Shown: positions 27,433 through 44,796 of the stretch, in pieces | Layout: the number at the start of each line of letters is the position of its first letter | How positions within the stretch are numbered: position 1 is the stretch's first letter | Program-made: the position numbers and the translations under genes | Sequence record: MF996376 | From: Escherichia phage SRT8 | Length of the DNA: 49,579 bases | Strand: one strand, 5' to 3' | The notes under the pieces: generated by a model | Database searches by the model: none | What the model saw: only the letters and a program-made list of their open reading frames with translations | Told to the model about the DNA's origin: nothing

Positions 27433-27450
27433 TTTAACATTTCGTGCTAT
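27433..27450 (-). promoter_or_regulatory. Palindromic element (ATAGCACGAAATGTTAAA) upstream of the TerS RBS, preceded by a TAATAT box and terminator
   Basis: Late-gene arrangement as for J and L. Confidence 0.45.
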
Positions 27451-27469
27451 TTTAGCATATTACAGGCAC

Positions 27470-27493
27470 AAAAAAACCCGCCGAAGCGGGTTA
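27470..27493 (-). terminator. Intrinsic terminator closing the leftward early operon (AACCCGC-TTCG-GCGGGTT plus T7)
   Basis: Hairpin nearly identical to the terminator at 1381-1401. Confidence 0.65.
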
Positions 27494-27510
27494 GTTTTCA
27501 ACCTGATTTT

Positions 27511-27741
27511 CTATTTGATGACTTTAAAGTTAATCGGCTTGTGGTGGCTGTAAGCTTTTGCGTATACCGCCGACAGGTCGCCGAAACAGTCCCATTCGTC
27601 ACGCTTGCGATCGTATGTCAACCATACGCCCGTTTTATGTTCCGCGTCGTGGTGAAGCGCGAAGGCTACAACAACGAACGCACAAAATGCACCAAAACCG
27701 AAAATCGCGATTGCCGCCAGAATGTAAAGAACGATAGCCAT
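27511..27741 (-). CDS. Small membrane protein
   Basis: Hydrophobic N-terminal segment ILAAIAIFGFGAFCAFVVVAFAL; AAGGAG RBS. Confidence 0.45.
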   Translation of the reverse strand: MAIVLYILAAIAIFGFGAFCAFVVVAFALHHDAEHKTGVWLTYDRKRDEWDCFGDLSAVYAKAYSHHKPINFKVIK

Positions 27742-27743
27742 TG

Positions 27744-27929
27744 TTAAATCTCCTTAACTAATAAAATGTTGAATTTGTGAGTTGCTGGATTCGCGCCTGA
27801 TTGGCCTTTCGCAATTGCGACAGCCTCTTCAGTGGAACCCGCTTCGATTTCTGCTTCGTAATGTTGACGACAGGTTTTGCACTGTCGCCCCATCTGCTTA
27901 ATTAGTAGCTTTACTGTGAATCGCTTCAT
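27744..27929 (-). CDS. Hypothetical small protein with a CxxC pair
   Basis: ORF only; start uncertain. Confidence 0.3.
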   Translation of the reverse strand: MKRFTVKLLIKQMGRQCKTCRQHYEAEIEAGSTEEAVAIAKGQSGANPATHKFNILLVKEI

Positions 27930-28059
27930 CTTCTTGCGCCTTCAGCATAACGCCACCGATTCGACCGATAACCGCTTCGCCCGGTTTTAATGATTTTTTG
28001 TAGCGGGTTACTTCGCCGTTACGGGTGACTTTGATTTCGATTTTGATATCTTGTTTCAT
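27898..28059 (-). CDS. Hypothetical small protein (53 aa), below the ORF-track length cutoff
   Basis: ATG with AAAGGAACC RBS-like sequence; read manually. Confidence 0.3.
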   Translation of the reverse strand: MKQDIKIEIKVTRNGEVTRYKKSLKPGEAVIGRIGGVMLKAQEDEAIHSKATN

Positions 28060-28222
28060 TTAGGTAGGTTCCTTTTAGAATTGATGCCGTGTACGGGTCT
28101 ACGGCGTTGGTTCCACAATCCAACCGAACTTACTACGAAAGTGCATCTATCGCGATGCGCGTTGCGCTCTATGCGCCTCTTTTGTCTACGGAAATAATGT
28201 TATCACCACTCAGGGACGAAGG

Positions 28223-28426
28223 TCAATCGTTAATTTCAAAATGTCCTTTCGTCATATCCTGCGGGAAGTCGATTTCGTGCAAGTTTCCATCGTCGCCGTA
28301 CACATAGACCAGGCGTTTAGCTTTGCTTACCTTCTCCACGTCGTACAAACAGCCATGCGAAAAGGCGTCGCCATTGCGTGACGTGATACAACGTACTTGA
28401 TCGTTTTTCTTCGGGAAGTGTGACAT
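28223..28426 (-). CDS. Hypothetical protein
   Basis: ORF in the early operon. Confidence 0.4.
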   Translation of the reverse strand: MSHFPKKNDQVRCITSRNGDAFSHGCLYDVEKVSKAKRLVYVYGDDGNLHEIDFPQDMTKGHFEIND

Positions 28427-28437
28427 TGTTAGATCTC

Positions 28438-28671
28438 CTATTCGTAGTCAAATTTGTTTCCAAAACGCCCGTTAAAATACCCGGCTAACCATATGAATTG
28501 TTGTCGCGTTACAAGGGTGTGAACTCCGTCCTTCTTGTGGTGCTCGTCGATTATGCGCTTTGCGACGTGATCGTATTTCGCGCCGCCTTCGATAGCCGCT
28601 TTCAACTCGGAAGACATTTCCCGGCAACGACGCTTAACAATATTCAAGTGCGCTTCAGTTAGTCCGAACAT
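28438..28671 (-). CDS. Hypothetical protein
   Basis: Start set to the ATG preceded by the conserved leader ACGGAGTAAGTAGA. Confidence 0.4.
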   Translation of the reverse strand: MFGLTEAHLNIVKRRCREMSSELKAAIEGGAKYDHVAKRIIDEHHKKDGVHTLVTRQQFIWLAGYFNGRFGNKFDYE

Positions 28672-28726
28672 TCTACTTACTCCGTTTGTTTTGATGGGGT
28701 TACTATATCGCAACCACGCGTTAATG

Positions 28727-28747
28727 GTTTAGCAATTCGTGCTAAAA
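28727..28747 (-). promoter_or_regulatory. Palindromic element cassette (TTTAGCA-ATTCG-TGCTAAA, a perfect 7-bp palindrome)
   Basis: Contains the stop codon of the upstream gene; followed by TATAGTAACCCCATCAAAACAAACGGAG leader. Confidence 0.55.
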
Positions 28748-29116
28748 GCGACCGGAACGACCGTTAACCGATACAACCTTTCCGCGCTTGCCGACGATCT
28801 CGTTATAAAGTGCGCCGCCAGCATTAACCGAATACTTCAGCGCCTCGGCTGGCGTGATATCGCGGAACATTTCAGCTTGACCGAATGACTTTTCCGCCGT
28901 TTCATTCTTGCGTCGCCACGCTTCGATCAGGTTCGGTAAAACACGTTCCGAACGCCACACGGCTAAAGCGGCCTGTTCGCTTGAATGCGGTAGCAATTGA
29001 CGCTCTACGATCTTGAACACTTCGCGGGCGATAGGAGTATCAAGTACGCCAGTTACCGAAAAACAGAAGTCGCAGAATTCGCGGGCTTGCTTCTCTGAAA
29101 GGTTAATCTGAATCAT
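28742..29116 (-). CDS. Hypothetical protein
   Basis: ORF in the early operon. Confidence 0.45.
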   Translation of the reverse strand: MIQINLSEKQAREFCDFCFSVTGVLDTPIAREVFKIVERQLLPHSSEQAALAVWRSERVLPNLIEAWRRKNETAEKSFGQAEMFRDITPAEALKYSVNAGGALYNEIVGKRGKVVSVNGRSGRF

Positions 29117-29304
29117 TCCGGTTTCTCCTTGGTAAAGAATCGACGCACATCTTTGCGATCATAATATGCGCCTTCGCTGTAATCTGATTCGCGTACTTCG
29201 ATAAACTGATCGCAACCGTCATACATGAAATCGCCGTCGTCGGTGAAAATCAATTCGTATTCGTTGCCGTGTTTGTCAAAGTAAACTTTTCCGGTGCAAA
29301 TCAT
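29113..29304 (-). CDS. Hypothetical small protein
   Basis: Start set to the ATG behind the conserved cassette leader. Confidence 0.4.
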   Translation of the reverse strand: MICTGKVYFDKHGNEYELIFTDDGDFMYDGCDQFIEVRESDYSEGAYYDRKDVRRFFTKEKPE

Positions 29305-29361
29305 TTTCGTTTCCTCGCTTTGTTTCAATAAGGACATTCTAACAAATGCCCTTGCGGAAAG

Positions 29362-29384
29362 TTTAGCAATTAGTGCTATTCGAC
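29362..29384 (-). promoter_or_regulatory. Palindromic element cassette, variant B (-10-like box inside a short inverted repeat)
   Basis: Motif followed by ctttccgcaagggcatttgttagaatgtccttattgaaa. Confidence 0.5.
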
Positions 29385-29582
29385 AATCTCCCAATCTTGC
29401 CCGGCAAGATGCACGCTATGTTTTAGCCGCGTGTAACATGGTGCGCCCAATTCGCCTTTGAAGCTGTAACAACCTTTAAACGAACCTTCTTCGCATAACT
29501 CCGCGTCGTAAATCTTAGTTGCCTTAATCCACGGCGAACCGTTATAAGTGGTGCGTATTCGGATCTTTTTCTTCTCTGTCAT
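29376..29582 (-). CDS. Hypothetical Cys-containing small protein
   Basis: ORF; GGGGAG RBS. Confidence 0.4.
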   Translation of the reverse strand: MTEKKKIRIRTTYNGSPWIKATKIYDAELCEEGSFKGCYSFKGELGAPCYTRLKHSVHLAGQDWEIVE

Positions 29583-29776
29583 AGTAATTTACTCCCCTTG
29601 CGGAATTCGTTTCGAAGCATATCGGCGGCGTCTAATCGACCATTTCGCCAGCCCAGCAAGTGACCGCCTAAGAACGCAAGAAACATCTCGGCGGCAACAA
29701 CGAAGCCGGAAGGCTGAAGCGCGATCGATAATGCGATGCAAGCCCAGCCGAAGATAAATAAAACCTTCATTTTCAT
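29579..29776 (-). CDS. Small membrane protein
   Basis: Two hydrophobic segments; cassette leader upstream. Confidence 0.45.
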   Translation of the reverse strand: MKMKVLFIFGWACIALSIALQPSGFVVAAEMFLAFLGGHLLGWRNGRLDAADMLRNEFRKGSKLL

Positions 29777-29834
29777 AGCGTAATTCCCTGATTGGTTGTT
29801 GATGGGGTAACTATAACAGCTTACCCCGATCCGG

Positions 29835-29853
29835 TTTTAGCAATTCGCGCTAT
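29835..29853 (-). promoter_or_regulatory. Palindromic element cassette (AAATAGCGCGAATTGCTAAAA, then hairpin, TGtTATAGT and leader)
   Basis: Read directly. Confidence 0.5.
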
Positions 29854-30428
29854 TTCAAATAGCGGCCTGTGATGACGCTTGCGGTGTAATCCGGGTCGCC
29901 GTCGCGCAACGTGAAGTCTTCTTCGGTGTACCCGTTAACGCCATGCCAGCCGACAGGTAAATGAAGATAGCTTCTGGAATCACCTTCGAACGTGAATCCG
30001 TCCCGGTGAAGTCGGCAAACATGAACCTGAATACCAGCTTCGATTAGTGCGATTGTCTCTTCAGTGAATCCGCCGTCAGTAATAACGGCTGGCGTGTCGC
30101 TTGCCTTAATCGCCTCCACCATGCGCCGCCCGAAATAATCATTTCCGAACTCAGGTTTAATGATTGTTTCGCTAATCCAGATCATGAACTCGCGCGGGCT
30201 TTTACCATTCAGGATAGAATCTGGCTTCTCTTTATGAAGTCGATCGTTATACAAGAATAAGAAATAATCGTAATTCGCGTCGCCCAAAATGGCGCGGGAA
30301 ATTTCAAACATCGGCGCTTTGAAGCTCAGCATGCGGACGCCTTTCCACTGGTTCATATCAGCGATAACACAACCGATCGTATCTTTGCCAATTCCCGGAC
30401 AGCCGTTAAGAATAATAACCTTGTTCAT
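29850..30428 (-). CDS. P-loop nucleotide kinase (deoxynucleoside-monophosphate kinase-like)
   Basis: N-terminal Walker A GCPGIGKDT and a late RDGD motif reminiscent of phage dNMP kinases; assignment from recalled family patterns. Confidence 0.5.
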   Translation of the reverse strand: MNKVIILNGCPGIGKDTIGCVIADMNQWKGVRMLSFKAPMFEISRAILGDANYDYFLFLYNDRLHKEKPDSILNGKSPREFMIWISETIIKPEFGNDYFGRRMVEAIKASDTPAVITDGGFTEETIALIEAGIQVHVCRLHRDGFTFEGDSRSYLHLPVGWHGVNGYTEEDFTLRDGDPDYTASVITGRYLK

Positions 30429-30535
30429 TATTTAACCCCTTTAATTACTTTCGCCACATCTACGATAACGCTATACATAATGTAAGCAAGAAAAAACGTT
30501 AATACCGGGTGCGCTTGCGAATGCGTAAAATTCTG

Positions 30536-31069
30536 TCATAACTTATCTACTCCGTGTGATTTCAGGTGTGAATGTACGTTGTCGCCGTAGTCGGTTACGG
30601 CATAGGTTGTTATTCCAATATTCCTAAAGTGTGGAATAACTGAAGGGCTATCATCCCACGCCGCTAAAATGCGATGCAACCCGATTTCGCGCAAAATCTC
30701 TTCTTTGATTACCGTATCCTTCCGGTTGTCGTCGTGGCGGCGCATGATCAGGAAATCATATTTCGCGTTGTGGTTCGCCAGCCATTCGCGCGACTCCTTT
30801 TCGACTTCATCGCTTCGCCCGGTTAGGATGATTACACAATGCCCGGCTGCATACATCGCATTCATTACCGCGATCGTGTTGGTAATCGGCGTGTCGAAGA
30901 TTGCCGCCCGGTTAAACTCGCTCCAACTTTCAGTTAAGTGAAGATCGGTTTTCGGTAGCAGGTGCAAGCGGTGCGTTCCGTCTGACAAAGTACCGTCGTA
31001 ATCAAAAATACAAATCATCCCGGACGGCGCGTTAGTGCGAAATTCTCTTCCGTATGCGTTAATCTTCAT
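30536..31069 (-). CDS. HAD-superfamily phosphatase
   Basis: DYDGT motif (FDYDGTLSD) near the N-terminus and a downstream acidic motif; start chosen at the ATG overlapping the upstream stop. Confidence 0.55.
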   Translation of the reverse strand: MKINAYGREFRTNAPSGMICIFDYDGTLSDGTHRLHLLPKTDLHLTESWSEFNRAAIFDTPITNTIAVMNAMYAAGHCVIILTGRSDEVEKESREWLANHNAKYDFLIMRRHDDNRKDTVIKEEILREIGLHRILAAWDDSPSVIPHFRNIGITTYAVTDYGDNVHSHLKSHGVDKL

Positions 31070-31191
31070 TATCGTAACCCTTCCCATTTTTCAGCCTGAT
31101 TTTTGCCGCGTTTCTGCGTCTTCTTAACTCGCTTGTAACCTTCGTCGAACTTCTTCGGCTTGCCGACAATCTTTTCGAAGTTTTGGCGCAT
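31069..31191 (-). CDS. Hypothetical small basic protein (about 40 aa)
   Basis: ATG behind the cassette leader CAAACAACAAAGGAG. Confidence 0.3.
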   Translation of the reverse strand: MRQNFEKIVGKPKKFDEGYKRVKKTQKRGKNQAEKWEGLR

Positions 31192-31243
31192 CGGTATTAC
31201 TCCTTTGTTGTTTGCTTTCAATGAGGACACTATAGCAATGCCC

Positions 31244-31266
31244 TCGCGGAAAGTCTTTAGCAAGTC
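31244..31266 (-). promoter_or_regulatory. Palindromic element cassette, variant B (TGcTATAGT in a hairpin loop)
   Basis: Read directly. Confidence 0.5.
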
Positions 31267-31273
31267 GTGCTAT

Positions 31274-31720
31274 TTACCAGTAGCTAATTTCTTCAATAAC
31301 GTAGCTGTCGAAGCTGGCTTGCGAAAAGTCGCTTTCGTAGTCGATGCGGAACGTTTCGATTAATTCGCTGATCGGGTAGCCAGATCTGAAGAAGTAGCCG
31401 TCTGCCATAGCCCGCGACCATTTCTTCGCGTCACGCTTGCACATACCGTAAGTGTTCACGGCCTCTTTGAAGAATGCGCGGTTCATCTTGCGGCGAATTG
31501 CGGTAACGTCCAGATAAGTAGCTGTACCGCCGTACACTTGATAATGATACCTGGACAGGCGCTTCATAATCAGATCCAGATCGCCCGGCTTGCAAATAAT
31601 CGCATCGGTGTGAAGGTAGGTTCGATACGGCTTGATTTCGGTTTCGTGACCGTAAAGACCGGTTTCCGCCATTTTGAGGCCGTCCGCTTCACCCTGAATG
31701 CACACGATCAGTTTGTTCAT
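31274..31720 (-). CDS. Hypothetical protein
   Basis: 148-aa ORF in the early operon. Confidence 0.45.
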   Translation of the reverse strand: MNKLIVCIQGEADGLKMAETGLYGHETEIKPYRTYLHTDAIICKPGDLDLIMKRLSRYHYQVYGGTATYLDVTAIRRKMNRAFFKEAVNTYGMCKRDAKKWSRAMADGYFFRSGYPISELIETFRIDYESDFSQASFDSYVIEEISYW

Positions 31721-31777
31721 TGTTGAATCTCCGTTTGTTGGTGTAGGGGGGAATCATAGCGCATTCCCCGTGATAGG

Positions 31778-31800
31778 TTTTAGCTTTTAGTGCTATTCAC
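31778..31800 (-). promoter_or_regulatory. Palindromic element cassette (motif overlaps the 3' end of the upstream ORF)
   Basis: AATAGCACTAAAAGCTAAAA followed by hairpin GGGGAAT...ATTCCCC and leader. Confidence 0.5.
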
Positions 31801-31998
31801 TTCGATAGTCACGCAAAAATTATCAAAACGATGCCCGCTTAAACGCGCTGTAATCACTTCTGGACGACGCAAAATCGCGTCAAGCAATCGCAAGGGTGAA
31901 TACTTAAAACCGTGATAGTGGGCGCTACGCTTCGAATTTGGGTTCATACCTGCTACCGCGTCCGCCGCTAAATCGTCGTAGTTCACATCACCAGCCAT
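31780..31998 (-). CDS. Hypothetical protein
   Basis: ORF in the early operon. Confidence 0.4.
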   Translation of the reverse strand: MAGDVNYDDLAADAVAGMNPNSKRSAHYHGFKYSPLRLLDAILRRPEVITARLSGHRFDNFCVTIEVNSTKS

Positions 31999-32105
31999 AA
32001 AGCCCCCTTCAAAACGTTAAGTACAATCAGCAATCCCAAAATCCCGGAAAGGAACCATAAAGGCGTATAGTCGGGCGGTTCATTCCAGTGTCCGGCGTCA
32101 ATCAT
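31986..32105 (-). CDS. Possible small membrane peptide (39 aa), below the ORF-track cutoff
   Basis: ATG with GAGG RBS; hydrophobic stretch LWFLSGILGLLIVLNVL. Confidence 0.3.
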
Positions 32106-32157
32106 CGTAAAACCTCAAGTTATGGGGAATCAATCAGCGACAGATTCCCCGTTAAAA

Positions 32158-32472
32158 TTACGCCACGCAAGCTACAGTGGCGACCAACAGGATCACGGCG
32201 GTGAAGATTGCCGGGACAATGTTTTCTTTGCGACGATACCACGGCTTTTTCGCTTCGTCGATTTCGCTTTGCGGTTTCAGCACTTGGAAGACAGCGCCCC
32301 GATCGGCGGCGAATGTTACGCGGTAGAACGTGCCGCCGTGAATCGGCATGCATGGACGCGCCCGGCCTTTGTCGTCGGCTGCGATGAAGTCTTTTTCGCC
32401 GACGCGCACAACGTCGTAAAATCCGCCGATGGTAAATTTATTGGTGTTGTTCGAAACGCATTTAGTTTTCAT
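32158..32472 (-). CDS. Hypothetical protein with C-terminal transmembrane anchor
   Basis: Start at the ATG behind the cassette leader; C-terminal IVPAIFTAVILLVATVACVA. Confidence 0.4.
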   Translation of the reverse strand: MKTKCVSNNTNKFTIGGFYDVVRVGEKDFIAADDKGRARPCMPIHGGTFYRVTFAADRGAVFQVLKPQSEIDEAKKPWYRRKENIVPAIFTAVILLVATVACVA

Positions 32473-32528
32473 TGATGTATCTCCTTTCGTTTGGTGTAGG
32501 GCTATTATGACATAGCCCCGATTCAGTG

Positions 32529-32550
32529 TTTTAGCAAAAAGTGCTATACG
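32529..32550 (-). promoter_or_regulatory. Palindromic element cassette
   Basis: ATAGCACTTTTTGCTAAAA then hairpin and AAAGGAG leader. Confidence 0.5.
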
Positions 32551-32846
32551 TAAACTTTGTTGCACAACGTGCCGGGCAGGATGTTAAACGACAGCATAAC
32601 GAAGTTGTTTCCGTTGTGCGTATCAGCGTTCGCCCGGTTAATGTACTTCGTTACGTCCGTCACATCGGTAATCAGTACACTAACTTCGCGCCCGGTGTAG
32701 TCGCCGTAATGCCACTCGCGCAAGCGCAACACGTCGCCCTCCTGAAAGTCGCGATCGTTCAATCTGAATTCGGCCTTCTTGCCGCCCATCTGGACGCCGA
32801 AAAAGTGAACAGGTTCGATCTTTAAATCGTGTTGCTTGCGTTTCAT
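32544..32846 (-). CDS. Hypothetical protein, possibly ASCH/PUA-like
   Basis: Weak pattern resemblance only (EFRLNDRDFQEGDVLRLREW). Confidence 0.4.
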   Translation of the reverse strand: MKRKQHDLKIEPVHFFGVQMGGKKAEFRLNDRDFQEGDVLRLREWHYGDYTGREVSVLITDVTDVTKYINRANADTHNGNNFVMLSFNILPGTLCNKVYV

Positions 32847-33055
32847 CGCCTACCAACCTCCCGGTAATCCATAGTCAAATCCAATTCCTTACAGCCGCAA
32901 GTGTGCATTTCTGTAGTGTTGACGTCGTGGTATTTGTTCATGCTGTACATTTCCTTCGCGATAATCTCGATCCTGTCGCTTGGGTGAATGTGCGATAACA
33001 GCCCTTCTAGCGTTACCGCCTTGCTGTCGATCTCAAATTGGCGTAGTCGTTTCAT
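32843..33055 (-). CDS. Hypothetical protein
   Basis: ORF, translationally coupled to neighbours. Confidence 0.4.
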   Translation of the reverse strand: MKRLRQFEIDSKAVTLEGLLSHIHPSDRIEIIAKEMYSMNKYHDVNTTEMHTCGCKELDLTMDYREVGRR

Positions 33056-33303
33056 TTAGCCACCCATTTACAACCGCTGTATTTTGCTTGACCGCCATCA
33101 TAGCCGCTATCCATTACGTGAAACTCGATCATGTCATTGGATAACATTTCCGTGATCGCGGAGTGATGCCAGCCAGTTTGATCAACATCCGGGAAATACC
33201 AGAACCTTTCCCCGGATGAATTCACATCCATTACTATGCTTTTGCACTTGCTCTTTTTCAGGCACGATTTAAATCGCTCCTGATCGCGTGTTAATTTTTT
33301 CAT
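33052..33303 (-). CDS. Hypothetical protein
   Basis: ORF, translationally coupled. Confidence 0.4.
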   Translation of the reverse strand: MKKLTRDQERFKSCLKKSKCKSIVMDVNSSGERFWYFPDVDQTGWHHSAITEMLSNDMIEFHVMDSGYDGGQAKYSGCKWVAK

Positions 33304-33593
33304 TTGAACAGTTTCCCCGATTTAAGCTTATTCCAGAACGAGAACGGATTAGCCTTCCGATACTCACCCTCTAAGAACGGATAGTCCGACATTTCGCGAC
33401 CTTCGAAAAGCAGATCGGCAAGGTGGCGATGTTTAGGCTTCGCGAATCGGGCTAACTCTTTCGCGCTTACCAGAACGAGCGAACCGATCGTTTTGTTGAC
33501 TTTTAGTTCAGTTTCGGTCGTCATGCCTTCGGTGATAATGTACTGATTGAGATTGCTCTTGCTGAAATATTGTTCGGTTAAGGTGATTTTCAT
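33300..33593 (-). CDS. Hypothetical protein
   Basis: Start at the ATG behind the cassette leader. Confidence 0.4.
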   Translation of the reverse strand: MKITLTEQYFSKSNLNQYIITEGMTTETELKVNKTIGSLVLVSAKELARFAKPKHRHLADLLFEGREMSDYPFLEGEYRKANPFSFWNKLKSGKLFK

Positions 33594-33659
33594 CGGGTTA
33601 TCTCCTGATTGGTTGCCCTGCTTCAATAAGCCCACTATAACAAATGGGCTTGCGGAAGG

Positions 33660-33677
33660 TTTAGCTATTCGTGCTAT
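33660..33677 (-). promoter_or_regulatory. Palindromic element cassette, variant B
   Basis: Element contains the TAG stop of the upstream gene; followed by GCCCA-tttgttatag-TGGGC. Confidence 0.5.
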
Positions 33678-34189
33678 TCAGCCCACTTGATCGTAGTGCC
33701 GCGCTTCATGCTAACTTCCCCGGCGAACACTTTGTTTTTGAAGCTGTGGTGCAACAGGAAAGTAATCGTTTCGCCGTCAACTTCGATTCGGACGGGATTA
33801 ACGAGAATATCAACCCATCCGCCCGACTCCATGCGGACGCCTGTCAGCTTCGCGCCTAGCGGCATTTGTTCGATTTTGCAGATCCCGCCAGATGTAGCGG
33901 CGGCGCTGGCATTATCGGCTGCGTTATGGATAATCATTCCGGCTGCGTACATTTGACCATTCAGCGAACGCGCATCCGAACGCATCGAATCTTTGTTGTA
34001 GTAGAAATAATCCTTCGCCGGGTTATTGTGCGGATTGCGTAGGTTATGCTGTTCGACGAAGTGCATAACGCTACCGTTATATTTTCCCTCACCTTCCTTC
34101 ACGCCACAATAGCGGCTAGTGAATGTGAAGCGGCCTACGCCGTTGCTGATAAATGTAATTGGATAGATGATATCTTGTTCTTTTAACAT
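33674..34189 (-). CDS. Hypothetical protein
   Basis: 171-aa ORF. Confidence 0.45.
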   Translation of the reverse strand: MLKEQDIIYPITFISNGVGRFTFTSRYCGVKEGEGKYNGSVMHFVEQHNLRNPHNNPAKDYFYYNKDSMRSDARSLNGQMYAAGMIIHNAADNASAAATSGGICKIEQMPLGAKLTGVRMESGGWVDILVNPVRIEVDGETITFLLHHSFKNKVFAGEVSMKRGTTIKWAE

Positions 34190-34241
34190 TGTTGTAACTC
34201 CTTTGTGTGGGCTTCACCACCATAGCGAAGCCCGAATCAAT

Positions 34242-34409
34242 TTACATGAACCAGCCCAACAGGGAACCCAGCGGCGCGATAAACACGCCGATTGCGCGAA
34301 TGATAAGGTTGTTGGTTGTGATATCGCCGAACATTGCGACGATGTTCATAATCCAGCCAGCAACAGCCGCGATCCATAAAGCAATAACCATAAGTGAGAA
34401 TAATTTCAT
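34242..34409 (-). CDS. Small membrane protein
   Basis: Start at the ATG behind the cassette leader; two hydrophobic segments. Confidence 0.4.
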   Translation of the reverse strand: MKLFSLMVIALWIAAVAGWIMNIVAMFGDITTNNLIIRAIGVFIAPLGSLLGWFM

Positions 34410-34465
34410 TTGTGTAACTCCTGTTTCGTTGTTGATGGGCTTACTATATCGCAAGCCCGGATGTG

Positions 34466-34488
34466 CGTTTTAACAAAAAGTGCTATCG
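34466..34488 (-). promoter_or_regulatory. Palindromic element cassette
   Basis: ATAGCACTTTTTGTTAAAA, hairpin, TATAGT, leader. Confidence 0.5.
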
Positions 34489-34965
34489 GATGATTTCTGC
34501 TTCAGCGCCGAAATACTCGTGTCCCTCAATGCAGAAAGTAGGATCGAACCCGCGAACATACATCCCGATTGCCAGTGCGTCGGCCTCGCAGATTGAAACA
34601 GTGTTCAACTGGTCTTCGTCGCGATATCCGTTAACGATAACCGGGAATGTGCGATTGTTGTTAGGCTTGAACGGGTAGTCGCCACTTTCAAGAATGCGCA
34701 CCTTCACTTTGCCGAACTTCGCGATCTCTACTTCGTGGTGCATGAAGAATAAGACGCCTTTTTTCGGGTTGTAGTCAATGCCGCCGCCGTTTTCTTCGGT
34801 AGGCTGTTGCCCGATTGCGCTGTCGTACACGCCTAGCGCTTCCAGATCAGAAACTTTGACGTGATAGCCGCCGTTACGCTCCGTTTCCACCGCATCGACC
34901 ACAATCGGGAAATGGTTAGTCGTGAAGCCCTTGTATCCGCCATTGCAAAAGATTTCGATTTTCAT
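34483..34965 (-). CDS. Hypothetical protein
   Basis: 160-aa ORF. Confidence 0.45.
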   Translation of the reverse strand: MKIEIFCNGGYKGFTTNHFPIVVDAVETERNGGYHVKVSDLEALGVYDSAIGQQPTEENGGGIDYNPKKGVLFFMHHEVEIAKFGKVKVRILESGDYPFKPNNNRTFPVIVNGYRDEDQLNTVSICEADALAIGMYVRGFDPTFCIEGHEYFGAEAEIIR

Positions 34966-35018
34966 GTGTGTATCTCCGTTCGTTGTTGATGTGGTTATAG
35001 TACCCGATCCGCTTGACC

Positions 35019-35039
35019 GGGTTTTAGCAATTCGTGCTA
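35019..35039 (-). promoter_or_regulatory. Palindromic element cassette
   Basis: AAATAGCACGAATTGCTAAAA with the TAG stop of the upstream gene inside it. Confidence 0.55.
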
Positions 35040-35318
35040 TTTAATCCATTCGCCTTTAATAATAAAGTCAGTGAACGCGTCAACCTTAGCGCCGCCACCA
35101 CAATTAAGCGGGTAGCTCCCTGTCGCGTCGTAAAAGTCCGCCAGGCGTTCGGCTATCCAGTTCATGAAACGCGCGTTACGTGACGCTACAGTGCCTTCGT
35201 ATGCTTGCTTAAATCCAAGTGCGGTTACGAATGCGATAAAGCGTTTTTGATAACCGGGCATCGCTTGCACGTTGGCGGCGAAGGCGTGTTGAAATTCAGT
35301 GCGGGTAAAGTTGTTCAT
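35037..35318 (-). CDS. Hypothetical protein
   Basis: Start at the ATG behind the cassette leader. Confidence 0.4.
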   Translation of the reverse strand: MNNFTRTEFQHAFAANVQAMPGYQKRFIAFVTALGFKQAYEGTVASRNARFMNWIAERLADFYDATGSYPLNCGGGAKVDAFTDFIIKGEWIK

Positions 35319-35376
35319 CCTGATAGGTTCCGTTGTCGTTGTCGATGTGTGCATTATGCCCGACTCCGTGCCGGGC

Positions 35377-35396
35377 TTTTTAGCAATTCGTGCTAT
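35377..35396 (-). promoter_or_regulatory. Palindromic element cassette
   Basis: ATAGCACGAATTGCTAAAA plus hairpin GCCCGGCAC/GGAGTCGGGC. Confidence 0.55.
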
Positions 35397-35986
35397 TCTG
35401 CGACTTCTTCGTTTTTACCTCTCAGGGCTTCGACGTGATTTCGAAATTCTTCTAGCAATTGCCTTGCCGTCGATAACTCTTCGTCGTCGTACTTCGTGAA
35501 GTCGGGAACCCACAACGCCAGCGCATTAAATCGAACCGTGTCGATATGCTCACCAGATTGAACAGAATCAGCCTGGACAACCGGAACCGCTTTCGCCTTA
35601 CGTGTGCGGGCGGGCTTCTCGATCGGTTCGTCAGACAGCGTGACCGACACTAAGATTTCGTCGTCTTCATCCCGGCTAAGTGAGATCGCACAATCAAAGC
35701 CAGCTTTCGCAACGTGGCGCTTGATAGTCGGCGCGATGTACGGCGATTTCATCTTCAGGCGCAACAGGCCGTTGTACTGATCCCGGAAGACTCGCGCGTC
35801 GTCGTCCAATTCGTCTTCAGTGCGGGTGACGCCGTGTTCCTCATACTGCAACCGGGCGGCTTCAATCAGCATTTGCAATTCGGTGAAGCTGAATTCCCGT
35901 TCGCCAGCCTGAATCTTCAGCGTGACGATGTGGCGAAGCATTGCGGCGATGTTCGGTTCATTTGCGGAAGGTAGTTTAGTTGACAT
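35393..35986 (-). CDS. First gene of the leftward early operon; acidic hypothetical protein
   Basis: 197 aa, Asp/Glu-rich; strong RBS directly next to the AT-rich hub. Confidence 0.5.
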   Translation of the reverse strand: MSTKLPSANEPNIAAMLRHIVTLKIQAGEREFSFTELQMLIEAARLQYEEHGVTRTEDELDDDARVFRDQYNGLLRLKMKSPYIAPTIKRHVAKAGFDCAISLSRDEDDEILVSVTLSDEPIEKPARTRKAKAVPVVQADSVQSGEHIDTVRFNALALWVPDFTKYDDEELSTARQLLEEFRNHVEALRGKNEEVAE

Positions 35987-36429: not shown

Positions 36430-36449
36430 GTAGCACGAATTGCTAAAAG
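36430..36449 (+). promoter_or_regulatory. Orphan palindromic element cassette (motif plus hairpin with TATAAC) not followed by a gene
   Basis: gTAGCACGAATTGCTAAAAg then GGGGA...TCCCC hairpin; no ATG with RBS downstream. Confidence 0.45.
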
Positions 36450-36623
36450 TTGGAGGGGAAGACCGTTTCACTCTATAACCTCTCCCCATTTTAATGCTTC
36501 ACAAGCAACAATCATCGCGATTGCGAACAATCACGCAATAATCATAACTTGTCATTTGCAATCATGAGTAATCACTCATTATTCCAGTTATTCCAATCTG
36601 AAGGAATAATCGTATCGGATCAG

Positions 36624-36642
36624 GAATAGCACTTTTTGCAAC
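36624..36642 (+). promoter_or_regulatory. Palindromic element cassette for the first rightward early gene
   Basis: AATAGCACTTTTTGCAACA, then TGgTATAGT, then leader ATCGAAACGAAGGAGA. Confidence 0.55.
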
Positions 36643-36698
36643 ACATCTGGCGGGTAGAGTTGGTATAGTTACTTCATCGAAACGAAGGAGATACAGAA

Positions 36699-36989
36699 AT
36701 GACCACTATCAGCAAAACGACAATCAACTTTGCACGCAAGCGCGGTTTAGACGTTACGATCGAGAACGTTGGCGAAGGTGACTTTATGGCGGTGTGGGAT
36801 CTGAATAATGATTGCGAATGGATGTTCACATATCAGGTCAATGATAACGGTTCATTCACTTATAACGGTAATGTGTGGTTGCCGGAAGATTTGAAAGAAG
36901 AGTTGCCCGGCACACTGAAAGATGAAAAGCACGTTCGCGAAATGCTGGCTTACATCGGCGCTAACCGTCACTTGTGGAAAGACTTATGA
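36699..36989 (+). CDS. Hypothetical protein (first rightward early gene)
   Basis: ORF with AAGGAG RBS. Confidence 0.5.
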   Translation: MTTISKTTINFARKRGLDVTIENVGEGDFMAVWDLNNDCEWMFTYQVNDNGSFTYNGNVWLPEDLKEELPGTLKDEKHVREMLAYIGANRHLWKDL

Positions 36990-37129
36990 TTCGCAGACTA
37001 AGGAATGCAATCGGCATTCACCTTAACGCGATCGAAGCGATGGGGTACGAAGTAGACGTCCGGGAGTTTAATCACCACTACAACCGGATCGAGGCGATAG
37101 AAAAACTTTTAGAACAGATGGAGAAATGA
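36986..37129 (+). CDS. Hypothetical small protein (47 aa), below the ORF-track cutoff
   Basis: ATGA overlap with both flanking genes. Confidence 0.35.
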   Translation: MIRRLRNAIGIHLNAIEAMGYEVDVREFNHHYNRIEAIEKLLEQMEK

Positions 37130-37314
37130 CAGTGAAGATCTTAAAGCGATTCACCAATAAAGGGCAGTGCAAGACACTTGCCGATACCGTAGAACGCAAG
37201 GTCGATTTCTATACTGACAACCTGTTTCGCTTTTGGGGCGATCCGTTTAGCAATCGCGATTTCCTTATTTGGGAAAAGCTGAAGCAATGGCGTAAAACGT
37301 TTTGCGGGTACTAA
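37126..37314 (+). CDS. Hypothetical protein
   Basis: ORF; translational coupling. Confidence 0.45.
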   Translation: MTVKILKRFTNKGQCKTLADTVERKVDFYTDNLFRFWGDPFSNRDFLIWEKLKQWRKTFCGY

Positions 37315-37335
37315 ATAGCACTTTTTGTTAAAACA
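37313..37335 (+). promoter_or_regulatory. Palindromic element cassette
   Basis: AAATAGCACTTTTTGTTAAAA then hairpin GGGGT...ACCCC. Confidence 0.5.
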
Positions 37336-37393
37336 CAATAGGGGTGGTGTGGCATCATTACCCCATCGCAAACGAGACAAGAGGATCACAAGC

Positions 37394-37666
37394 ATGGGAC
37401 AGAATAAGACCGTTACCGAATCAGTGGAATACATCGCCGTTATGACTCTTCGCCCGGACACTATCGCGGTGCAATGCCTTAGCAACAAACAACCCGTTTA
37501 CGTGCCGCGCGACGAAGACGTCGTAGAGTTCTTGACCGATCCGAACTTCCTGTCGTTAATGGAGAAAGTGACCGATCATTACCGCTACGACGACAGAAGT
37601 TTAACGATGGTTCGTCTTGTGGTGAAAGAACGCAAAATCCGCACAACCACGGAGATAATCGAATGA
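37394..37666 (+). CDS. Hypothetical protein
   Basis: ATG behind the cassette leader. Confidence 0.45.
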   Translation: MGQNKTVTESVEYIAVMTLRPDTIAVQCLSNKQPVYVPRDEDVVEFLTDPNFLSLMEKVTDHYRYDDRSLTMVRLVVKERKIRTTTEIIE

Positions 37667-37851
37667 AGAAACAATACCGCGTCGTTGCAAAGAGTCGCGC
37701 AACCGGGAAGGAGTCAGTTTGCTATGCAGGTGATAGCGCCAGCCTTGCGACCGACACTTACGACGACCTGTTGAAGCGCAAAATGTTTATGGAAGATTTC
37801 AAGATCCGGCTTGAAATTATGGAACCCGTAATCGTCATGGAATCCGACTAA
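37663..37851 (+). CDS. Hypothetical protein
   Basis: ORF; coupled. Confidence 0.45.
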   Translation: MKKQYRVVAKSRATGKESVCYAGDSASLATDTYDDLLKRKMFMEDFKIRLEIMEPVIVMESD

Positions 37852-38076
37852 ATGAGAAAGCAAGTAACTTGCCGTTGTCGCGCGTATGACTTCCCGCATA
37901 GATTCGGCGGCGGACGTTGTAACGGGATCGCTATTGTCGAACAGCATTTTCCCGGTTCACTTTGCGGCAGTTGCTTGCTGTTTAACGATGGGTGCGAAGT
38001 CCTCAAAGGACAGGAAAGCCCGTGCGAATGTATGTACGTTCAAGACTTCATCGAATATCAGGAGATTAAATTATGA
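37852..38076 (+). CDS. Hypothetical Cys-rich (possible zinc-binding) protein
   Basis: Ten Cys in 74 aa. Confidence 0.45.
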   Translation: MRKQVTCRCRAYDFPHRFGGGRCNGIAIVEQHFPGSLCGSCLLFNDGCEVLKGQESPCECMYVQDFIEYQEIKL

Positions 38077-38399
38077 TCGGCAAATTGTACGAAATCAACG
38101 TCAAGCGCCTGATTGGTTGGGGCGGAAGCATTTCCGACGCTGTATTGAAAGCTGGCGAAGATTTACAGCCGCACGTATTGGAGCGAGCGAGGGCGGCGGC
38201 ATTACGAAAAGTTGGTGCTGATTTCGAAGATCGTGTGAAATACGTCTACACCGACAGCGCACGAATCCTTATCGACGAACCGACAGGCGAAGAGATTATC
38301 CGCTTCAGTCCTTTGCAGCATAACAGCTACGAAGATATGAAGAAGACCGGGAGAGTGATTTTATCAGTTCAATACGCGACGTGGGACAATAAGCAATGA
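38073..38399 (+). CDS. Hypothetical protein
   Basis: ORF; coupled. Confidence 0.45.
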   Translation: MIGKLYEINVKRLIGWGGSISDAVLKAGEDLQPHVLERARAAALRKVGADFEDRVKYVYTDSARILIDEPTGEEIIRFSPLQHNSYEDMKKTGRVILSVQYATWDNKQ

Positions 38400-38551
38400 T
38401 TCGATATTACAACCACGAAACGAAATCATGGTATGTAATCGTAGGTCAACATGTACGCCGCTTAATGAAAGATGGTAGTTGGATTATCTCAGATCGCTAT
38501 AGTGTCGCCGACGTTGCGCATTATCCATTTACCTGGCATCGCGTCAAATAG
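38396..38551 (+). CDS. Hypothetical small protein (51 aa)
   Basis: ATGA overlap; its TAG stop lies in the next palindromic element. Confidence 0.35.
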   Translation: MIRYYNHETKSWYVIVGQHVRRLMKDGSWIISDRYSVADVAHYPFTWHRVK

Positions 38552-38566
38552 CACAAATTGCTAAAA
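38546..38566 (+). promoter_or_regulatory. Palindromic element cassette
   Basis: AAATAGCACAAATTGCTAAAA, hairpin GGGGTA...TACCCC, TGtTATAGT, leader. Confidence 0.55.
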
Positions 38567-38620
38567 CAACGACGGGGTATCTTGTTATAGTTACCCCATC
38601 GAAACGAAGGAGAAATAACA

Positions 38621-38845
38621 ATGAGTATCAAGATTGAAAATATTCTTAAGCACTACGCAGCAAAAGGGAAAGTAATTGTAAAACTGGATCGCGCGGCTGG
38701 ATATCATCAAATCACCATTAACAAAAGCCGTAGCGGTAATAACGTAGTCGGCACTATTCCGGGCGCTCGTTTAGTAAACGCAACAATGGCGGACGTTCGC
38801 GCCATGCTTGAAACTAACTCAATCTACATTAATTCGTGGGGTTAA
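38621..38845 (+). CDS. Hypothetical protein
   Basis: ORF with AAGGAGA RBS. Confidence 0.45.
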   Translation: MSIKIENILKHYAAKGKVIVKLDRAAGYHQITINKSRSGNNVVGTIPGARLVNATMADVRAMLETNSIYINSWG

Positions 38846-43644: not shown

Positions 43645-43666
43645 TTTAGCTATTCGTGCTATTTAT
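43645..43666 (-). promoter_or_regulatory. Palindromic element cassette
   Basis: AAATAGCACGAATAGCTAAAG, hairpin GGGGTAAC/GTTACCCC, TATAGT, leader. Confidence 0.55.
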
Positions 43667-44796
43667 TCGGTCATTTCCGGGCGGTAGATGAAGCGCCCAA
43701 CTTCGCCGAATTTTTTGTCGTACACGATAACCGCCGCTTGTCGGTATGCTCTCCAGCCGCCCCGCGCCGCGTAAGCGTCTTTAGCGCCTAGCTGTCCGTG
43801 TACTTCGTCAATCCCTAGCGTGTGCTCGGTGATTGTTTGATGATGCCAATGTCCGCTATGCGTGTATACGTATTTGCTGTCGCCGAACTCTTCGCGGAAG
43901 TCCGCCGCCATAGCCGCTAAACGCGTGTCGGCTTTCTTCATCGTGTGACCGTGAGTGTAACCCAAAAGCGTTTTACCCCACTTCGTTTTATGTAGAATCA
44001 TCGGGCTAACATCGACATAGACGCGCGGTTCGTCGTCGTAATATGCCGCCATTGCAGCGCGTAGCCAAATCATTCCGGCTTGATCGTGATTGCCTTCAAT
44101 GATTTGCACTTCGACTTCTTCGTGTTTCTCAAGCATTCTTGAGATCGCGCGGCGCGTTGCCCGGATTGCCACGTAAACCAGTTTTGCATAGCGTGAATCT
44201 TGATCCAGAACGTGACCGCTTGCCGGGGTAACTGCGTCCAGACCGTCACTATGCAGGAAGTCACCACCGATTAACAGTACGGCTTTTTTGGCTTCAGGCG
44301 CTACGGTTACGGCGTAGTCGAAATACTTGTTCAACACTTCTTCGGCGATATCAGTAGAATAGTTTTCGCCGGATTCGTGTTTATGGGCTAACGCGCCGAT
44401 ATGAAGATCGAATACCGGGTAAAGCGCAAGCAAGCTTTCTTCAGTGTTCGGCGTTGCGTCGCTTGGCGTCGCTCGCGGAAGGTCTTCACAAAATGCGATT
44501 TGTGCCGCCTTCATTAGTTCGTAAATCTTTTCCTTGTCCTGATCGGTCTTAACCCAACGAACGACTTCGGAACCGTCCGCGCGAATCATTGTCGAAGTAC
44601 CTTTGACCGCGAAGCCTGTCGGGACGTTAGCCGATACGTGCGCGTTTCCGTGGAAGTGACCTTCTTTCGCTAACTTAGCGTGACGCGCTTCGACGGTTCG
44701 AATGTGCATACCGTATTTTTCTGCGATCTCGCGAAGGGTTAGGCCGTTGCTACGCTCTTCGATAAGCTGTTCGGTTGTGATTTTTGCAGTTGACAT
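43663..44796 (-). CDS. Calcineurin-like metallophosphoesterase with N-terminal helix-turn-helix domain
   Basis: Phosphoesterase motifs GDFLH, GNHD, GHTH, GHWH; N-terminal LTLREIAEKYGMHIRTV resembles an HTH. Confidence 0.6.
   Translation of the reverse strand: MSTAKITTEQLIEERSNGLTLREIAEKYGMHIRTVEARHAKLAKEGHFHGNAHVSANVPTGFAVKGTSTMIRADGSEVVRWVKTDQDKEKIYELMKAAQIAFCEDLPRATPSDATPNTEESLLALYPVFDLHIGALAHKHESGENYSTDIAEEVLNKYFDYAVTVAPEAKKAVLLIGGDFLHSDGLDAVTPASGHVLDQDSRYAKLVYVAIRATRRAISRMLEKHEEVEVQIIEGNHDQAGMIWLRAAMAAYYDDEPRVYVDVSPMILHKTKWGKTLLGYTHGHTMKKADTRLAAMAADFREEFGDSKYVYTHSGHWHHQTITEHTLGIDEVHGQLGAKDAYAARGGWRAYRQAAVIVYDKKFGEVGRFIYRPEMTE

Follow-up and report, generated by a model that had tools for sequence, protein, structure and literature searches.

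The window analyzed here, the whole 49,579-nucleotide stretch of Escherichia phage SRT8 (sequence record MF996376), belongs to Sertoctavirus (T1-like, Drexlerviridae) and is 97-99% identical to phages IME-JL8 and BrunoManser. A reading made from the sequence alone had placed adjacent genes for a P-loop kinase and a HAD phosphatase at 29850-31069, and the ORFs, their motifs and their PHROG and Pfam matches agree with it. Both ORFs are on the minus strand, which sets the transcript order as phosphatase followed by kinase. That they are real genes, not chance ORFs, follows from their PHROG matches (E of 5e-45 for the kinase and 7e-67 for the HAD protein), the Pfam HAD_PNKP match of the latter (3.9e-19), and hundreds of homologues. 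The features discussed below are the following.

29792-29855, minus strand: downstream copy of the early-gene cassette (repeat family D1, reference copy), overlapping the kinase stop
29850-30428, minus strand: kinase (DNK) ORF of 192 aa, assigned as dNMP kinase; N-terminus MNKVIILNGCPGIGKDT
30378-30404, minus strand: P-loop GCPGIGKDT of the kinase; K15 is the catalytic lysine, GKD variant
30428-30539, minus strand: putative frameshifted remnant of a small hydrophobic ORF; MTEFYAFASA in frame 2, HPVLTFFLAYIMYSVIVDVAKVIKGVK and then a stop in frame 0
30429-30535: spacer of 107 bp between the HAD stop and the kinase start
30536-31069, minus strand: HAD phosphatase ORF, 177 aa from the ATG at 31069; Pnkp-type, stand-alone
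30989-31003, minus strand: HAD motif I, DYDGT (D23-Y-D25-G-T), nucleophile and general acid
31069-31191, minus strand: highly basic small ORF of 40 aa (MRQNFEKIVGKPKKFDEGYKRVKKTQKRGKNQAEKWEGLR), taken from the ORF list; a 123-bp CDS in IME-JL8
about 31229-31276, minus strand: upstream copy of the cassette, with palindrome TAGCACGACTTGCTA and then a TATAGT -10-like element (repeat families D2, D3 and D14)
43663-44796, minus strand: metallophosphoesterase of 377 aa with an N-terminal HTH, "DNA repair exonuclease" (phrog_704, 5.7e-155)

The ATG of the HAD gene shares TAATG with the stop of the upstream 40-aa ORF, which had no match in a Pfam search, and has GAAGGG ahead of it as a Shine-Dalgarno sequence; if translation began at another ATG, at 31087, the protein would have 183 aa. 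About 10 copies of the cassette, composed of the palindrome TAGCAC-N4-TGCTA and a covarying hairpin with a TATAGT loop, occur among the early genes. Two of these early-promoter-like copies flank the kinase and HAD genes, which form one unit. We presume that the upstream copy is the promoter/operator of this unit; a simple sigma-70 scan did not call it, and its promoter function is deduced from the sequence. The downstream copy lies directly after the kinase and opens the following unit. The 107-bp spacer itself was correctly described as lacking the usual cassette, with no copy inside 30429-30535, and a scan of the coding strand in and around it for sigma-70 promoters and terminators found nothing.

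Based on a comparison with other T1-like phages, the spacer appears to be the frameshifted remnant of a small hydrophobic ORF, the ancestral form of which would have overlapped the HAD gene at its stop (ATGA) and the kinase gene at its start (TAATG). An intact homologue, MNLYEFIAAHPVLTVIILLIINHTIINVAKLFLGRY, is found at loci L009, L011, L013 and others. The spacer of IME-JL8 carries a different 1-nt indel, and the segment is absent from BrunoManser and IME347. The frameshifts may be sequencing errors at a T-run and a CA repeat. A 22-aa ORF beginning at the ATGA overlap was rejected because its frame is not conserved in IME-JL8.

The kinase matches phrog_139 ("dNMP kinase") at profile positions 82-253 (E 5.1e-45), in the same region as T4 gp1 (83-261, E 1.8e-65). 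Its best match in a fold search was the T4 dNMP kinase gp1 (1DEK), and BLAST against Rao1 gp58 (R1DNK) gave 45% identity across the catalytic core (E 4e-50), with C-terminal 35 residues that are unlike. From these PHROG, fold-search and Rao1 BLAST results, which are the only basis of the family call, we assign the protein with good confidence to the dNMP-kinase family of T4 gp1, T5 Dnk and Rao1 R1DNK (PHROG 139). Its P-loop reads G9-CPGIG-K15-D16-T17; across 28 homologues, G14 and K15 never vary and D16 hardly ever does. K15, the GKD variant and an upstream HAD_PNKP neighbour are common to the SRT8 kinase and R1DNK, and the P-loop of T4 gp1 is also of the GKD type. The narrow T4 gp1 model of Pfam (DNMK, PF21448), on which T4 gp1 itself scores 357.9 bits, did not match the SRT8 kinase even at E <= 1, which places it as a distant gp1 relative outside that family. 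Nothing rose above threshold for the kinase in Pfam or NCBIfam, and searches of the PDB with the single sequence or a 28-sequence profile returned nothing but adenylate kinases and AAA ATPases, matched at the P-loop. An hhalign comparison of the kinase alignment with the single T4 gp1 sequence was weak (74 columns, 79% probability) and, taken by itself, no more than suggestive.

A polynucleotide-kinase-like role of this gene in RNA repair, raised as conceivable by the sequence-only reading, is not supported for the kinase. The protein matches neither AAA_33, which T4 Pnkp itself matches at 5e-23, nor phrog_505/2071, and hhalign to T4 Pnkp covered 24 columns, all in the P-loop. The lack of any AAA_33/Pnkp-kinase signature and the confinement of Pnkp similarity to these 24 residues speak against a polynucleotide kinase. 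By contrast, the profile searches proposed at that stage as a check led to phrog_139 for the kinase and to Pfam HAD_PNKP for the phosphatase, so that the interpretation as a nucleotide kinase, an HAD phosphatase and a contribution to nucleotide pool remodelling is supported. R1DNK phosphorylates dAMP, dGMP, dCMP and dTMP, its function is abolished by K15A, and it raises dADP in cells (bioRxiv 10.1101/2024.12.20.629578). By analogy with this 45%-identical homologue, the SRT8 protein is predicted to convert dNMPs to dNDPs in an ATP-dependent manner. A gene that close relatives label "hypothetical protein" or "P-loop NTPase" can thus be named a dNMP kinase.

The HAD protein matches Pfam HAD_PNKP (PF25109) with 69.6 bits against a cut-off of 27.6. 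HAD motifs I-IV are present as D23xD25GT, T83-G-R85, K122 and D139-D140. D23 and D25 align with D165 and D167 of T4 Pnkp, and R34, R85, D118, D139 and D140 align with R176, R213, D254, D277 and D278. All seven of these T4 Pnkp residues, which we take to be essential, are thus retained. The closest folds are Capnocytophaga Pnkp1 (4XRP) and T4 Pnkp (PseT, 1LTQ/5UJ0). The 177-aa protein is accordingly classed, from its sequence and fold, as a phosphatase specifically of the Pnkp type, a refinement of the earlier and correct call of an HAD phosphatase.

There are several differences from known Pnkp proteins. The T4 Pnkp phosphatase is fused to an AAA_33-type 5'-kinase positioned N-terminal of it, whereas the HAD protein stands alone, and the kinase downstream of it in the window is of another family and has no ligase partner. 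Unlike the phosphatase domains of T4 Pnkp and Pnkp1, the HAD protein has an N-terminal beta-hairpin, and its C-terminal tail (..HSHLKSHGV..), conserved yet disordered, differs from both. By comparison with T4 Pnkp, members of the HAD family also contain 16 extra residues after motif I; this conserved expansion forms two helices at the position of the cap and, based on alignment and secondary structure only, would fit small substrates better than polynucleotides.

Genes of this stand-alone family are abundant in phages, with 13,724 cluster representatives at E <= 0.001 under the name "polynucleotide kinase". The HAD gene is among the commonest uncharacterised enzymes in phage genomes, and it is widely mis-annotated, as only the phosphatase domain is present. 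The pair has also been noticed before. TLS Gp09/Gp14 were listed as "PNK" and "dNMP kinase" genes in a Drexlerviridae genome paper (PMC11447400), and an analysis of KanT1 read its PNK and dNMP-kinase pair as "enhancing nucleotide supply" (PMC13164509). The TLS and KanT1 pairs have both gene families and the phage family in common with the window; the label "polynucleotide kinase" in these reports reflects annotation transfer to a protein with no kinase domain, and the roles were assigned without functional tests. A paper on retron Eco2 in which Drexlerviridae and PNK are both named proved to have no bearing on the pair, because PNK serves there only as a reagent for labelling.

Of 80 related loci, 76 have the HAD gene on the strand of the kinase and upstream of it, and in about 29 of these the two genes abut or overlap. 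In about 40 of the 76 two-gene loci, many of them T1-like, 0.7-2.1 kb of other genes intervene, indicating that tight coupling is not universal. Natural HAD-to-DNK fusion proteins of 403 and 461 aa have the same order, HAD and then kinase. The pair is also encoded by phages of groups that are not related to one another (Drexlerviridae, Rao1-like siphoviruses and Melnykvirinae podoviruses). Within Drexlerviridae, common descent may account for some of the synteny. In Rao1, the orthologous genes gp57 and gp58 encode proteins 64% (HAD) and 45% (kinase) identical to those of SRT8. An exonuclease-like metallophosphoesterase adjoins the pair in Rao1 and at locus L092, and Melnykvirinae carry an endonuclease, a metallophosphoesterase, HAD and DNK consecutively. 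The SRT8 metallophosphoesterase, which is far from the two genes in the window but adjacent to both in other phages, is 64% identical to the product of Rao1 gp56, the gene immediately before gp57/gp58, and 45% identical to that of the gene after the HAD-DNK fusion in L092.

Stand-alone HAD_PNKP genes of other phages occur in nucleotide-metabolism or host-DNA-degradation contexts. An RB49-like phage has one directly after nrdA-nrdB, in addition to rnlA and a second HAD_PNKP match that is presumably its true Pnkp, and in Vequintavirus the genes after DNK are those of an NT5C-type HAD nucleotidase, thyA and nrd. At least two families of HAD phosphatase other than that of T5 Dmp, namely HAD_PNKP and NT5C, are thus found paired with DNK genes. 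The kinase also occurs without HAD, in Vibrio KF2 and Kuravirus contexts, and HAD without the kinase in many contexts, including mycobacteriophages. Taken together, these genomic contexts point to nucleotide salvage.

We therefore favor, with a probability of roughly 60%, the view that the two early genes of this T1-like phage are co-transcribed and act as a pair in nucleotide salvage. T1 and TLS break down host DNA and recycle its nucleotides (PMC11447400). The kinase, with broad specificity, would phosphorylate dNMPs to dNDPs by means of ATP and its P-loop lysine K15, and host Ndk would then make dNTPs from these for phage DNA synthesis. In the HAD phosphatase, D23 would carry an aspartyl-phosphate intermediate and D25 would serve as the general acid. 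The enzyme would strip phosphates, most likely 3'-phosphates, from nucleic-acid breakdown products; 3'-dNMP, nucleoside 3',5'-bisphosphates and 3'-phosphorylated ends are candidate substrates. Its products could re-enter the 5'-dNMP pool for the kinase, or the enzyme could otherwise balance the pool. We infer this coupling of the two reactions; what the present analysis itself shows is the family assignments, the conservation of the catalytic residues, the folds and the linkage of the genes. Two points count against salvage: we found no assayed member of the stand-alone HAD clade in the literature, and the characterised proteins closest to it have the 3' ends of polynucleotides as their substrates. 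In addition, Rao1 from which R1DNK was deleted showed only a moderate drop in dATP and no evident loss of fitness, so that the benefit of salvage may be small or conditional.

The two genes could instead be functionally unrelated, their proximity being no more than conserved T1-like gene order. The 0.7-2.1 kb of other genes between them at about half of the two-gene loci, the kinase-only contexts and the many HAD-only contexts are consistent with this. The recurrence of the pair in three phage groups, its frequent translational coupling and its occurrence, on a phage contig of 60.8 kb, as one fused polypeptide argue otherwise, and we consider this explanation unlikely. A link to counter-defence is still less probable. 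Zeng et al. reported that phage DNKs trigger the Kongming defence (KomABC), that the DxD phosphatase T5 Dmp blocks this response through depletion of dAMP, and that homologues of Dmp often accompany DNKs. The kinases of KarlJaspers and VAC2, two other Drexlerviridae, also triggered Kongming. Because the kinase family triggers this dITP/NADase defence, SRT8 is predicted to be Kongming-sensitive, and the HAD protein might be a functional analogue of Dmp that dephosphorylates dAMP/dIMP and so averts the dITP alarm made by the kinase. The pairing of DNK genes with HAD_PNKP and NT5C phosphatases is in line with such a role. However, Rao1 has the orthologous pair and yet is strongly restricted by Kongming, with rescue only by T5 Dmp in trans; its HAD orthologue, unlike T5 Dmp, thus seems to give Rao1 no protection. 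Bas26, despite its functional Dmp, is Kongming-sensitive, and phage sensitivity therefore does not fully exclude an anti-Kongming role. T5, which also encodes a DNK, has in Dmp a DxD-type, Mg-dependent 5'-deoxyribonucleotidase that acts on the dNMP pool. Dmp has no Pfam match and has only motif I in common with the HAD protein (BLASTP, 17 residues around motif I, E 0.049); homology between the two was rejected because no similarity was detectable beyond this motif.

Equally improbable, in our view, is a two-protein, non-orthologous analogue of T4 Pnkp that counters host nucleases leaving 3'-P/5'-OH ends. The HAD protein would clear the 3'-phosphate or 2',3'-cyclic phosphate, the kinase would phosphorylate the 5'-OH of the broken tRNA or DNA, and a host ligase would seal it. 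The HAD protein does have the phosphatase domains of the RNA-repair enzymes Pnkp1 and T4 Pnkp as its nearest sequence and fold relatives, with every catalytic residue kept, and may itself act in end-healing. The kinase N-terminus (MNKVIILNGCPGIGKDT) resembles that of T4 Pnkp (MKKIILTIGCPGSGKST), and the adjacent or fused kinase and phosphatase recall the Pnkp architecture. The often adjacent metallophosphoesterase is of a class that serves end healing in bacterial Pnkp. Nevertheless, the kinase is of the dNMP-kinase and not the AAA_33/Pnkp family, its homologue R1DNK is a demonstrated dNMP kinase, and the RB49-like phage, which also has rnlA and another HAD_PNKP match, still keeps its separate HAD gene beside nrdAB. 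T4-type Pnkp is one polypeptide with the kinase N-terminal, whereas in the window the phosphatase gene comes first and the kinase is encoded by a separate gene after it; the rare fusions likewise run from HAD to kinase. Of the two T4-type domains, the 3'-phosphatase with its catalytic set is present and the AAA_33 5'-kinase is not. As the sequence-only reading had noted, no ligase accompanies the pair, and neither the window nor close relatives yielded a DNA or RNA ligase: T4 DNA ligase (Dnl), Rnl1 and Rnl2 as tblastn queries gave only noise in the window (nothing better than E 0.4), PHROG scans of its ten larger unassigned ORFs showed no ligase, and the 97%-identical genome of BrunoManser has none annotated. 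The 377-aa ORF at 43663-44796 was rejected as the missing ligase, as it encodes the metallophosphoesterase.

A further option, which we hold to be doubtful, is that HAD_PNKP and the gp1-type kinase constitute a dedicated, uncharacterised enzyme unit, often with a metallophosphoesterase nuclease and sometimes translationally coupled or fused. Such a unit could be a salvage route from 3'-dNMP or pdNp to 5'-dNDP, or possibly a convergent, domain-swapped Pnkp in which a dNMP-kinase fold replaces the AAA_33 kinase.

In conclusion, we report here a common phage gene pair that is most likely an ordinary nucleotide-metabolism module and not a new RNA-repair or defence system. A dedicated unit of either kind, if true, would give the stand-alone "polynucleotide kinase" annotations of phages a real biochemical role. 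The repeated linkage and rare fusion of HAD_PNKP with the kinase, often beside a metallophosphoesterase, provide a testable lead on the recycling of host DNA by T1-like and other phages.

The adjacent kinase and HAD phosphatase genes noted in a sequence-only reading of this DNA are real, and in our reading of the ORFs they lie on the same (minus) strand with a 107-bp gap between them. The sequence of the window is that of IMG/VR contig UViG_2974594196_000001 (49,579 bp). Around the two genes it shares 98.6% identity with Citrobacter phage IME-JL8 and 97.2% with Escherichia phage BrunoManser (Bas12), which both belong to the T1-like phages (Sertoctavirus, Tunavirinae, Drexlerviridae). In the records of these phages, the kinase gene is labeled "hypothetical protein" or "putative P-loop NTPase", and the HAD gene "putative polynucleotide kinase/phosphatase" or "polynucleotide kinase". 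The genes considered here are the following.

29850-30428, minus strand: kinase gene, 192 aa
30428-30539, minus strand: ORF remnant in the spacer; intact homologues at about 3890-4000 in the related viral loci L009, L011, L013 and L015
30536-31069, minus strand: HAD gene, 177 aa, ATG preceded by GAAGGG
31069-31191, minus strand: small basic ORF directly upstream of the HAD gene, 40 aa with 13 K/R residues
43663-44796, minus strand: phrog_704 "DNA repair exonuclease", 377 aa, with an HTH-like N-terminal segment and the metallophosphoesterase motifs GGDFLHSDG, EGNHD and GHWHH

Pfam, NCBIfam and PDB sequence searches matched only the P-loop of the kinase. Among the PHROGs profiles, it matched phrog_139, "deoxynucleoside monophosphate kinase" (E 5e-45), in the same region as T4 gp1 (E 1.8e-65). 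The decisive link is its 45% identity (E 4e-50) to Rao1 gp58 (R1DNK), a characterized enzyme, and together these matches identify the protein with good confidence as a dNMP kinase, in line with the nucleotide kinase originally proposed. A polynucleotide-kinase-like role had also been considered and does not hold for the kinase: T4 Pnkp matches phrog_505 and Pfam AAA_33, neither of which the window kinase matches, and the likeness of GCPGIGKDT to T4 Pnkp is limited to the P-loop. Residues G14, K15, K37, R63, K66, R79, S86, E87, D118, R142 and D150-S151-R152 are invariant in an alignment of 28 kinase sequences. R1DNK phosphorylates dAMP, dGMP, dCMP and dTMP, and dIMP weakly; its function depends on K15, and dADP rises in vivo (Zeng et al., bioRxiv 10.1101/2024.12.20.629578). 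R1DNK acts as the trigger for the Kongming (KomABC) defence, and the kinases of the Drexlerviridae KarlJaspers and vB_KpnS-VAC2 set it off too (same source). In the Escherichia Kuravirus myPSH1131 (locus L086, 2689-3582), a DNK-like domain makes up the C-terminal end of a protein of 297 aa, in which the N-terminal approximately 100 residues have no Pfam match; this gene adjoins a 5'-3' exonuclease.

Judged from its sequence, the HAD protein is a Pnkp-type phosphatase, and profile searches bear out the earlier HAD assignment (Pfam HAD_PNKP, 69.6 bits against a cut-off of 27.6; phrog_415, E 7e-67). Its PDB sequence matches come from Capnocytophaga Pnkp1 and T4 Pnkp, in both cases the phosphatase domain. 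Amino acids D165, D167, R176, R213, D254, D277 and D278 of T4 Pnkp, reportedly essential in the mutagenesis of Wang and Shuman, align with D23, D25, R34, R85, D118, D139 and D140, and K258 and S211 with K122 and T83. By comparison to T4 Pnkp, the window protein has an N-terminal beta-hairpin, a conserved yet disordered tail and, after motif I, an expansion of 16 residues forming two helices, which is nearly invariant across its family. This expansion occupies the position of the substrate-selecting cap in HAD enzymes and, based on alignment and secondary structure, would thus suit a small substrate. The family comprises 13,724 cluster representatives at E <= 0.001, the best 150 of which are mostly stand-alone proteins of 140-170 aa, and it occurs in 2,165 phage records. 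Some T1-like HAD_PNKP proteins (loci L010, L012 and L057, about 3815-3900, and the homologue P0132) carry a C-terminal extension of approximately 25 residues with the pattern C-x-H...C-x-x-C, for example VCNHEPSEPLPPFGDKICIKCKELLK, possibly a zinc knuckle; the window protein lacks it.

Of the 80 viral contigs that the kinase retrieved, 76 have the HAD gene upstream on the same strand, at a distance of 0-9 nt in about 29 of them and with other genes (0.7-2.1 kb) intervening in about 40. The order is the same in Rao1, where gp57 (64% identical to the window HAD protein) precedes gp58, and in Aeromonas and Klebsiella podoviruses of the Melnykvirinae. Two of the best 150 HAD representatives (403 and 461 aa) are HAD-to-kinase fusions that match the kinase profile (E 9e-62 and 4e-55), and a 60.8-kb metagenomic phage contig carries one of the two. 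A metallophosphoesterase is a frequent neighbor of the pair: a phrog_704 homologue lies directly before gp57 in Rao1 (64% identity to the window protein) and directly after the HAD-kinase fusion in locus L092 (45%), and Melnykvirinae have a different, calcineurin-like phosphoesterase ahead of the pair. In T1-like phages, the phrog_704 protein is a candidate enzyme for degrading host DNA or releasing nucleotides. Independently, a recent paper on a T1-like genome names "polynucleotide kinase" and "dNMP kinase" as the commonest genes after "DNA repair exonuclease" in Drexlerviridae and proposes that they serve nucleotide supply (PMC13164509).

Earlier, remodelling of the nucleotide pool and healing of nucleic-acid ends had both been envisaged for the pair. 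Gene contexts favour nucleotide metabolism: the row in Melnykvirinae is endonuclease, phosphoesterase, HAD, kinase; Vequintavirus has an NT5C-type HAD deoxyribonucleotidase after the kinase, and then thyA and nrd; and the RB49-like Sf20 genome contains a stand-alone HAD_PNKP that overlaps the nrdB end, besides rnlA and another HAD_PNKP match, presumably the Sf20 Pnkp. T1 and TLS break down the host chromosome and recycle its nucleotides (PMC11447400). No ligase was detected in searches of the window or is annotated among the 84 genes of BrunoManser, in agreement with the sequence-only reading. Based on these contexts, the reuse of host DNA and the lack of a detected ligase, we favour a nucleotide-salvage pair, a reading that is well supported in its kinase part. 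The T4 enzyme has 3'-deoxynucleotidase activity, and by analogy the HAD substrate would most plausibly be 3'-phosphorylated nucleotides or ends.

Could the two proteins instead share the work of one Pnkp? The kinase family, the demonstrated dNMP kinase activity of R1DNK and the absence of a ligase from the searched window weaken this idea, although the phosphatase alone could heal 3' ends. That the HAD protein acts like Dmp, the T5 deoxyribonucleotidase that counters Kongming, is attractive because DNK and Dmp co-occur (Zeng et al., bioRxiv 10.1101/2024.12.20.629578). The idea loses weight because Kongming still restricts Rao1, which has an orthologous HAD protein, and T5 Dmp in trans rescues the phage; moreover, the window protein and Dmp have only motif I in common.

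The "usual cassette" of the early genes is likewise real, with approximately 10 intergenic copies among these genes, each consisting of the palindrome TAGCAC(N4)TGCTA and, after it, a hairpin with TATAGT in its loop and covarying stems.

29792-29855, minus strand: cassette copy overlapping the kinase stop
about 31229-31276, minus strand: cassette copy upstream of the 40-aa ORF
within 27433-35399, minus strand: cassette copies, e.g. 29321-29381, 33619-33679, 34425-34488 and 34979-35042
within 36431-38624, plus strand: cassette copies

The stems differ by copy yet remain complementary (GGGGTAA/TTACCCC, GGGCTT/AAGCCC, AAGCCCA/TGGGCTT), and 3' of the hairpin lies CATCAACAAC, then a ribosome-binding site. 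In the copy at 31229-31276, TTGCTA and TATAGT are approximately 23 nt apart, too far for a standard sigma-70 promoter. As a simple sigma-70 scan made no call on the cassette, we only infer a promoter role; it may be operator, promoter and hairpin (RNA or DNA) in one. Copies flank the 40-aa ORF, HAD gene and kinase gene, and none lies between the latter two, as had been noted, so the trio looks like one unit. The stop of the 40-aa ORF, which has no family match, shares TAATG with the HAD ATG, a translationally coupled arrangement.

No regulatory feature was detected in the 107-bp spacer. At its position, the T1-like loci L009, L011, L013 and L015 carry an intact hydrophobic ORF of 36 aa, MNLYEFIAAHPVLTVIILLIINHTIINVAKLFLGRY, which overlaps the HAD stop; it is also intact in L010, L012 and L057, where the HAD gene before it is longer. 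In the window this ORF is broken across two frames: one encodes its N-terminal stretch, MTEFYAFASA, and the other its C-terminal stretch, HPVLTFFLAYIMYSVIVDVAKVIKGVK, with the stop. Relative to IME-JL8 the window lacks a CA dinucleotide, and IME-JL8 has a separate 1-nt loss within a T-run; in BrunoManser and IME347 the segment is entirely gone, so that the HAD gene overlaps or adjoins the kinase gene. Taken together, we read the spacer as a decaying, frameshifted small gene, although indels at a T-run and a CA repeat could possibly be sequencing errors. The product, of 36-37 aa, was probably a single-pass membrane peptide; the intact ORF is translationally coupled with its HAD and kinase neighbors.

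In conclusion, the initial observation was correct and its interpretation half right. The gene pair was already known and noticed, and the window adds another example.
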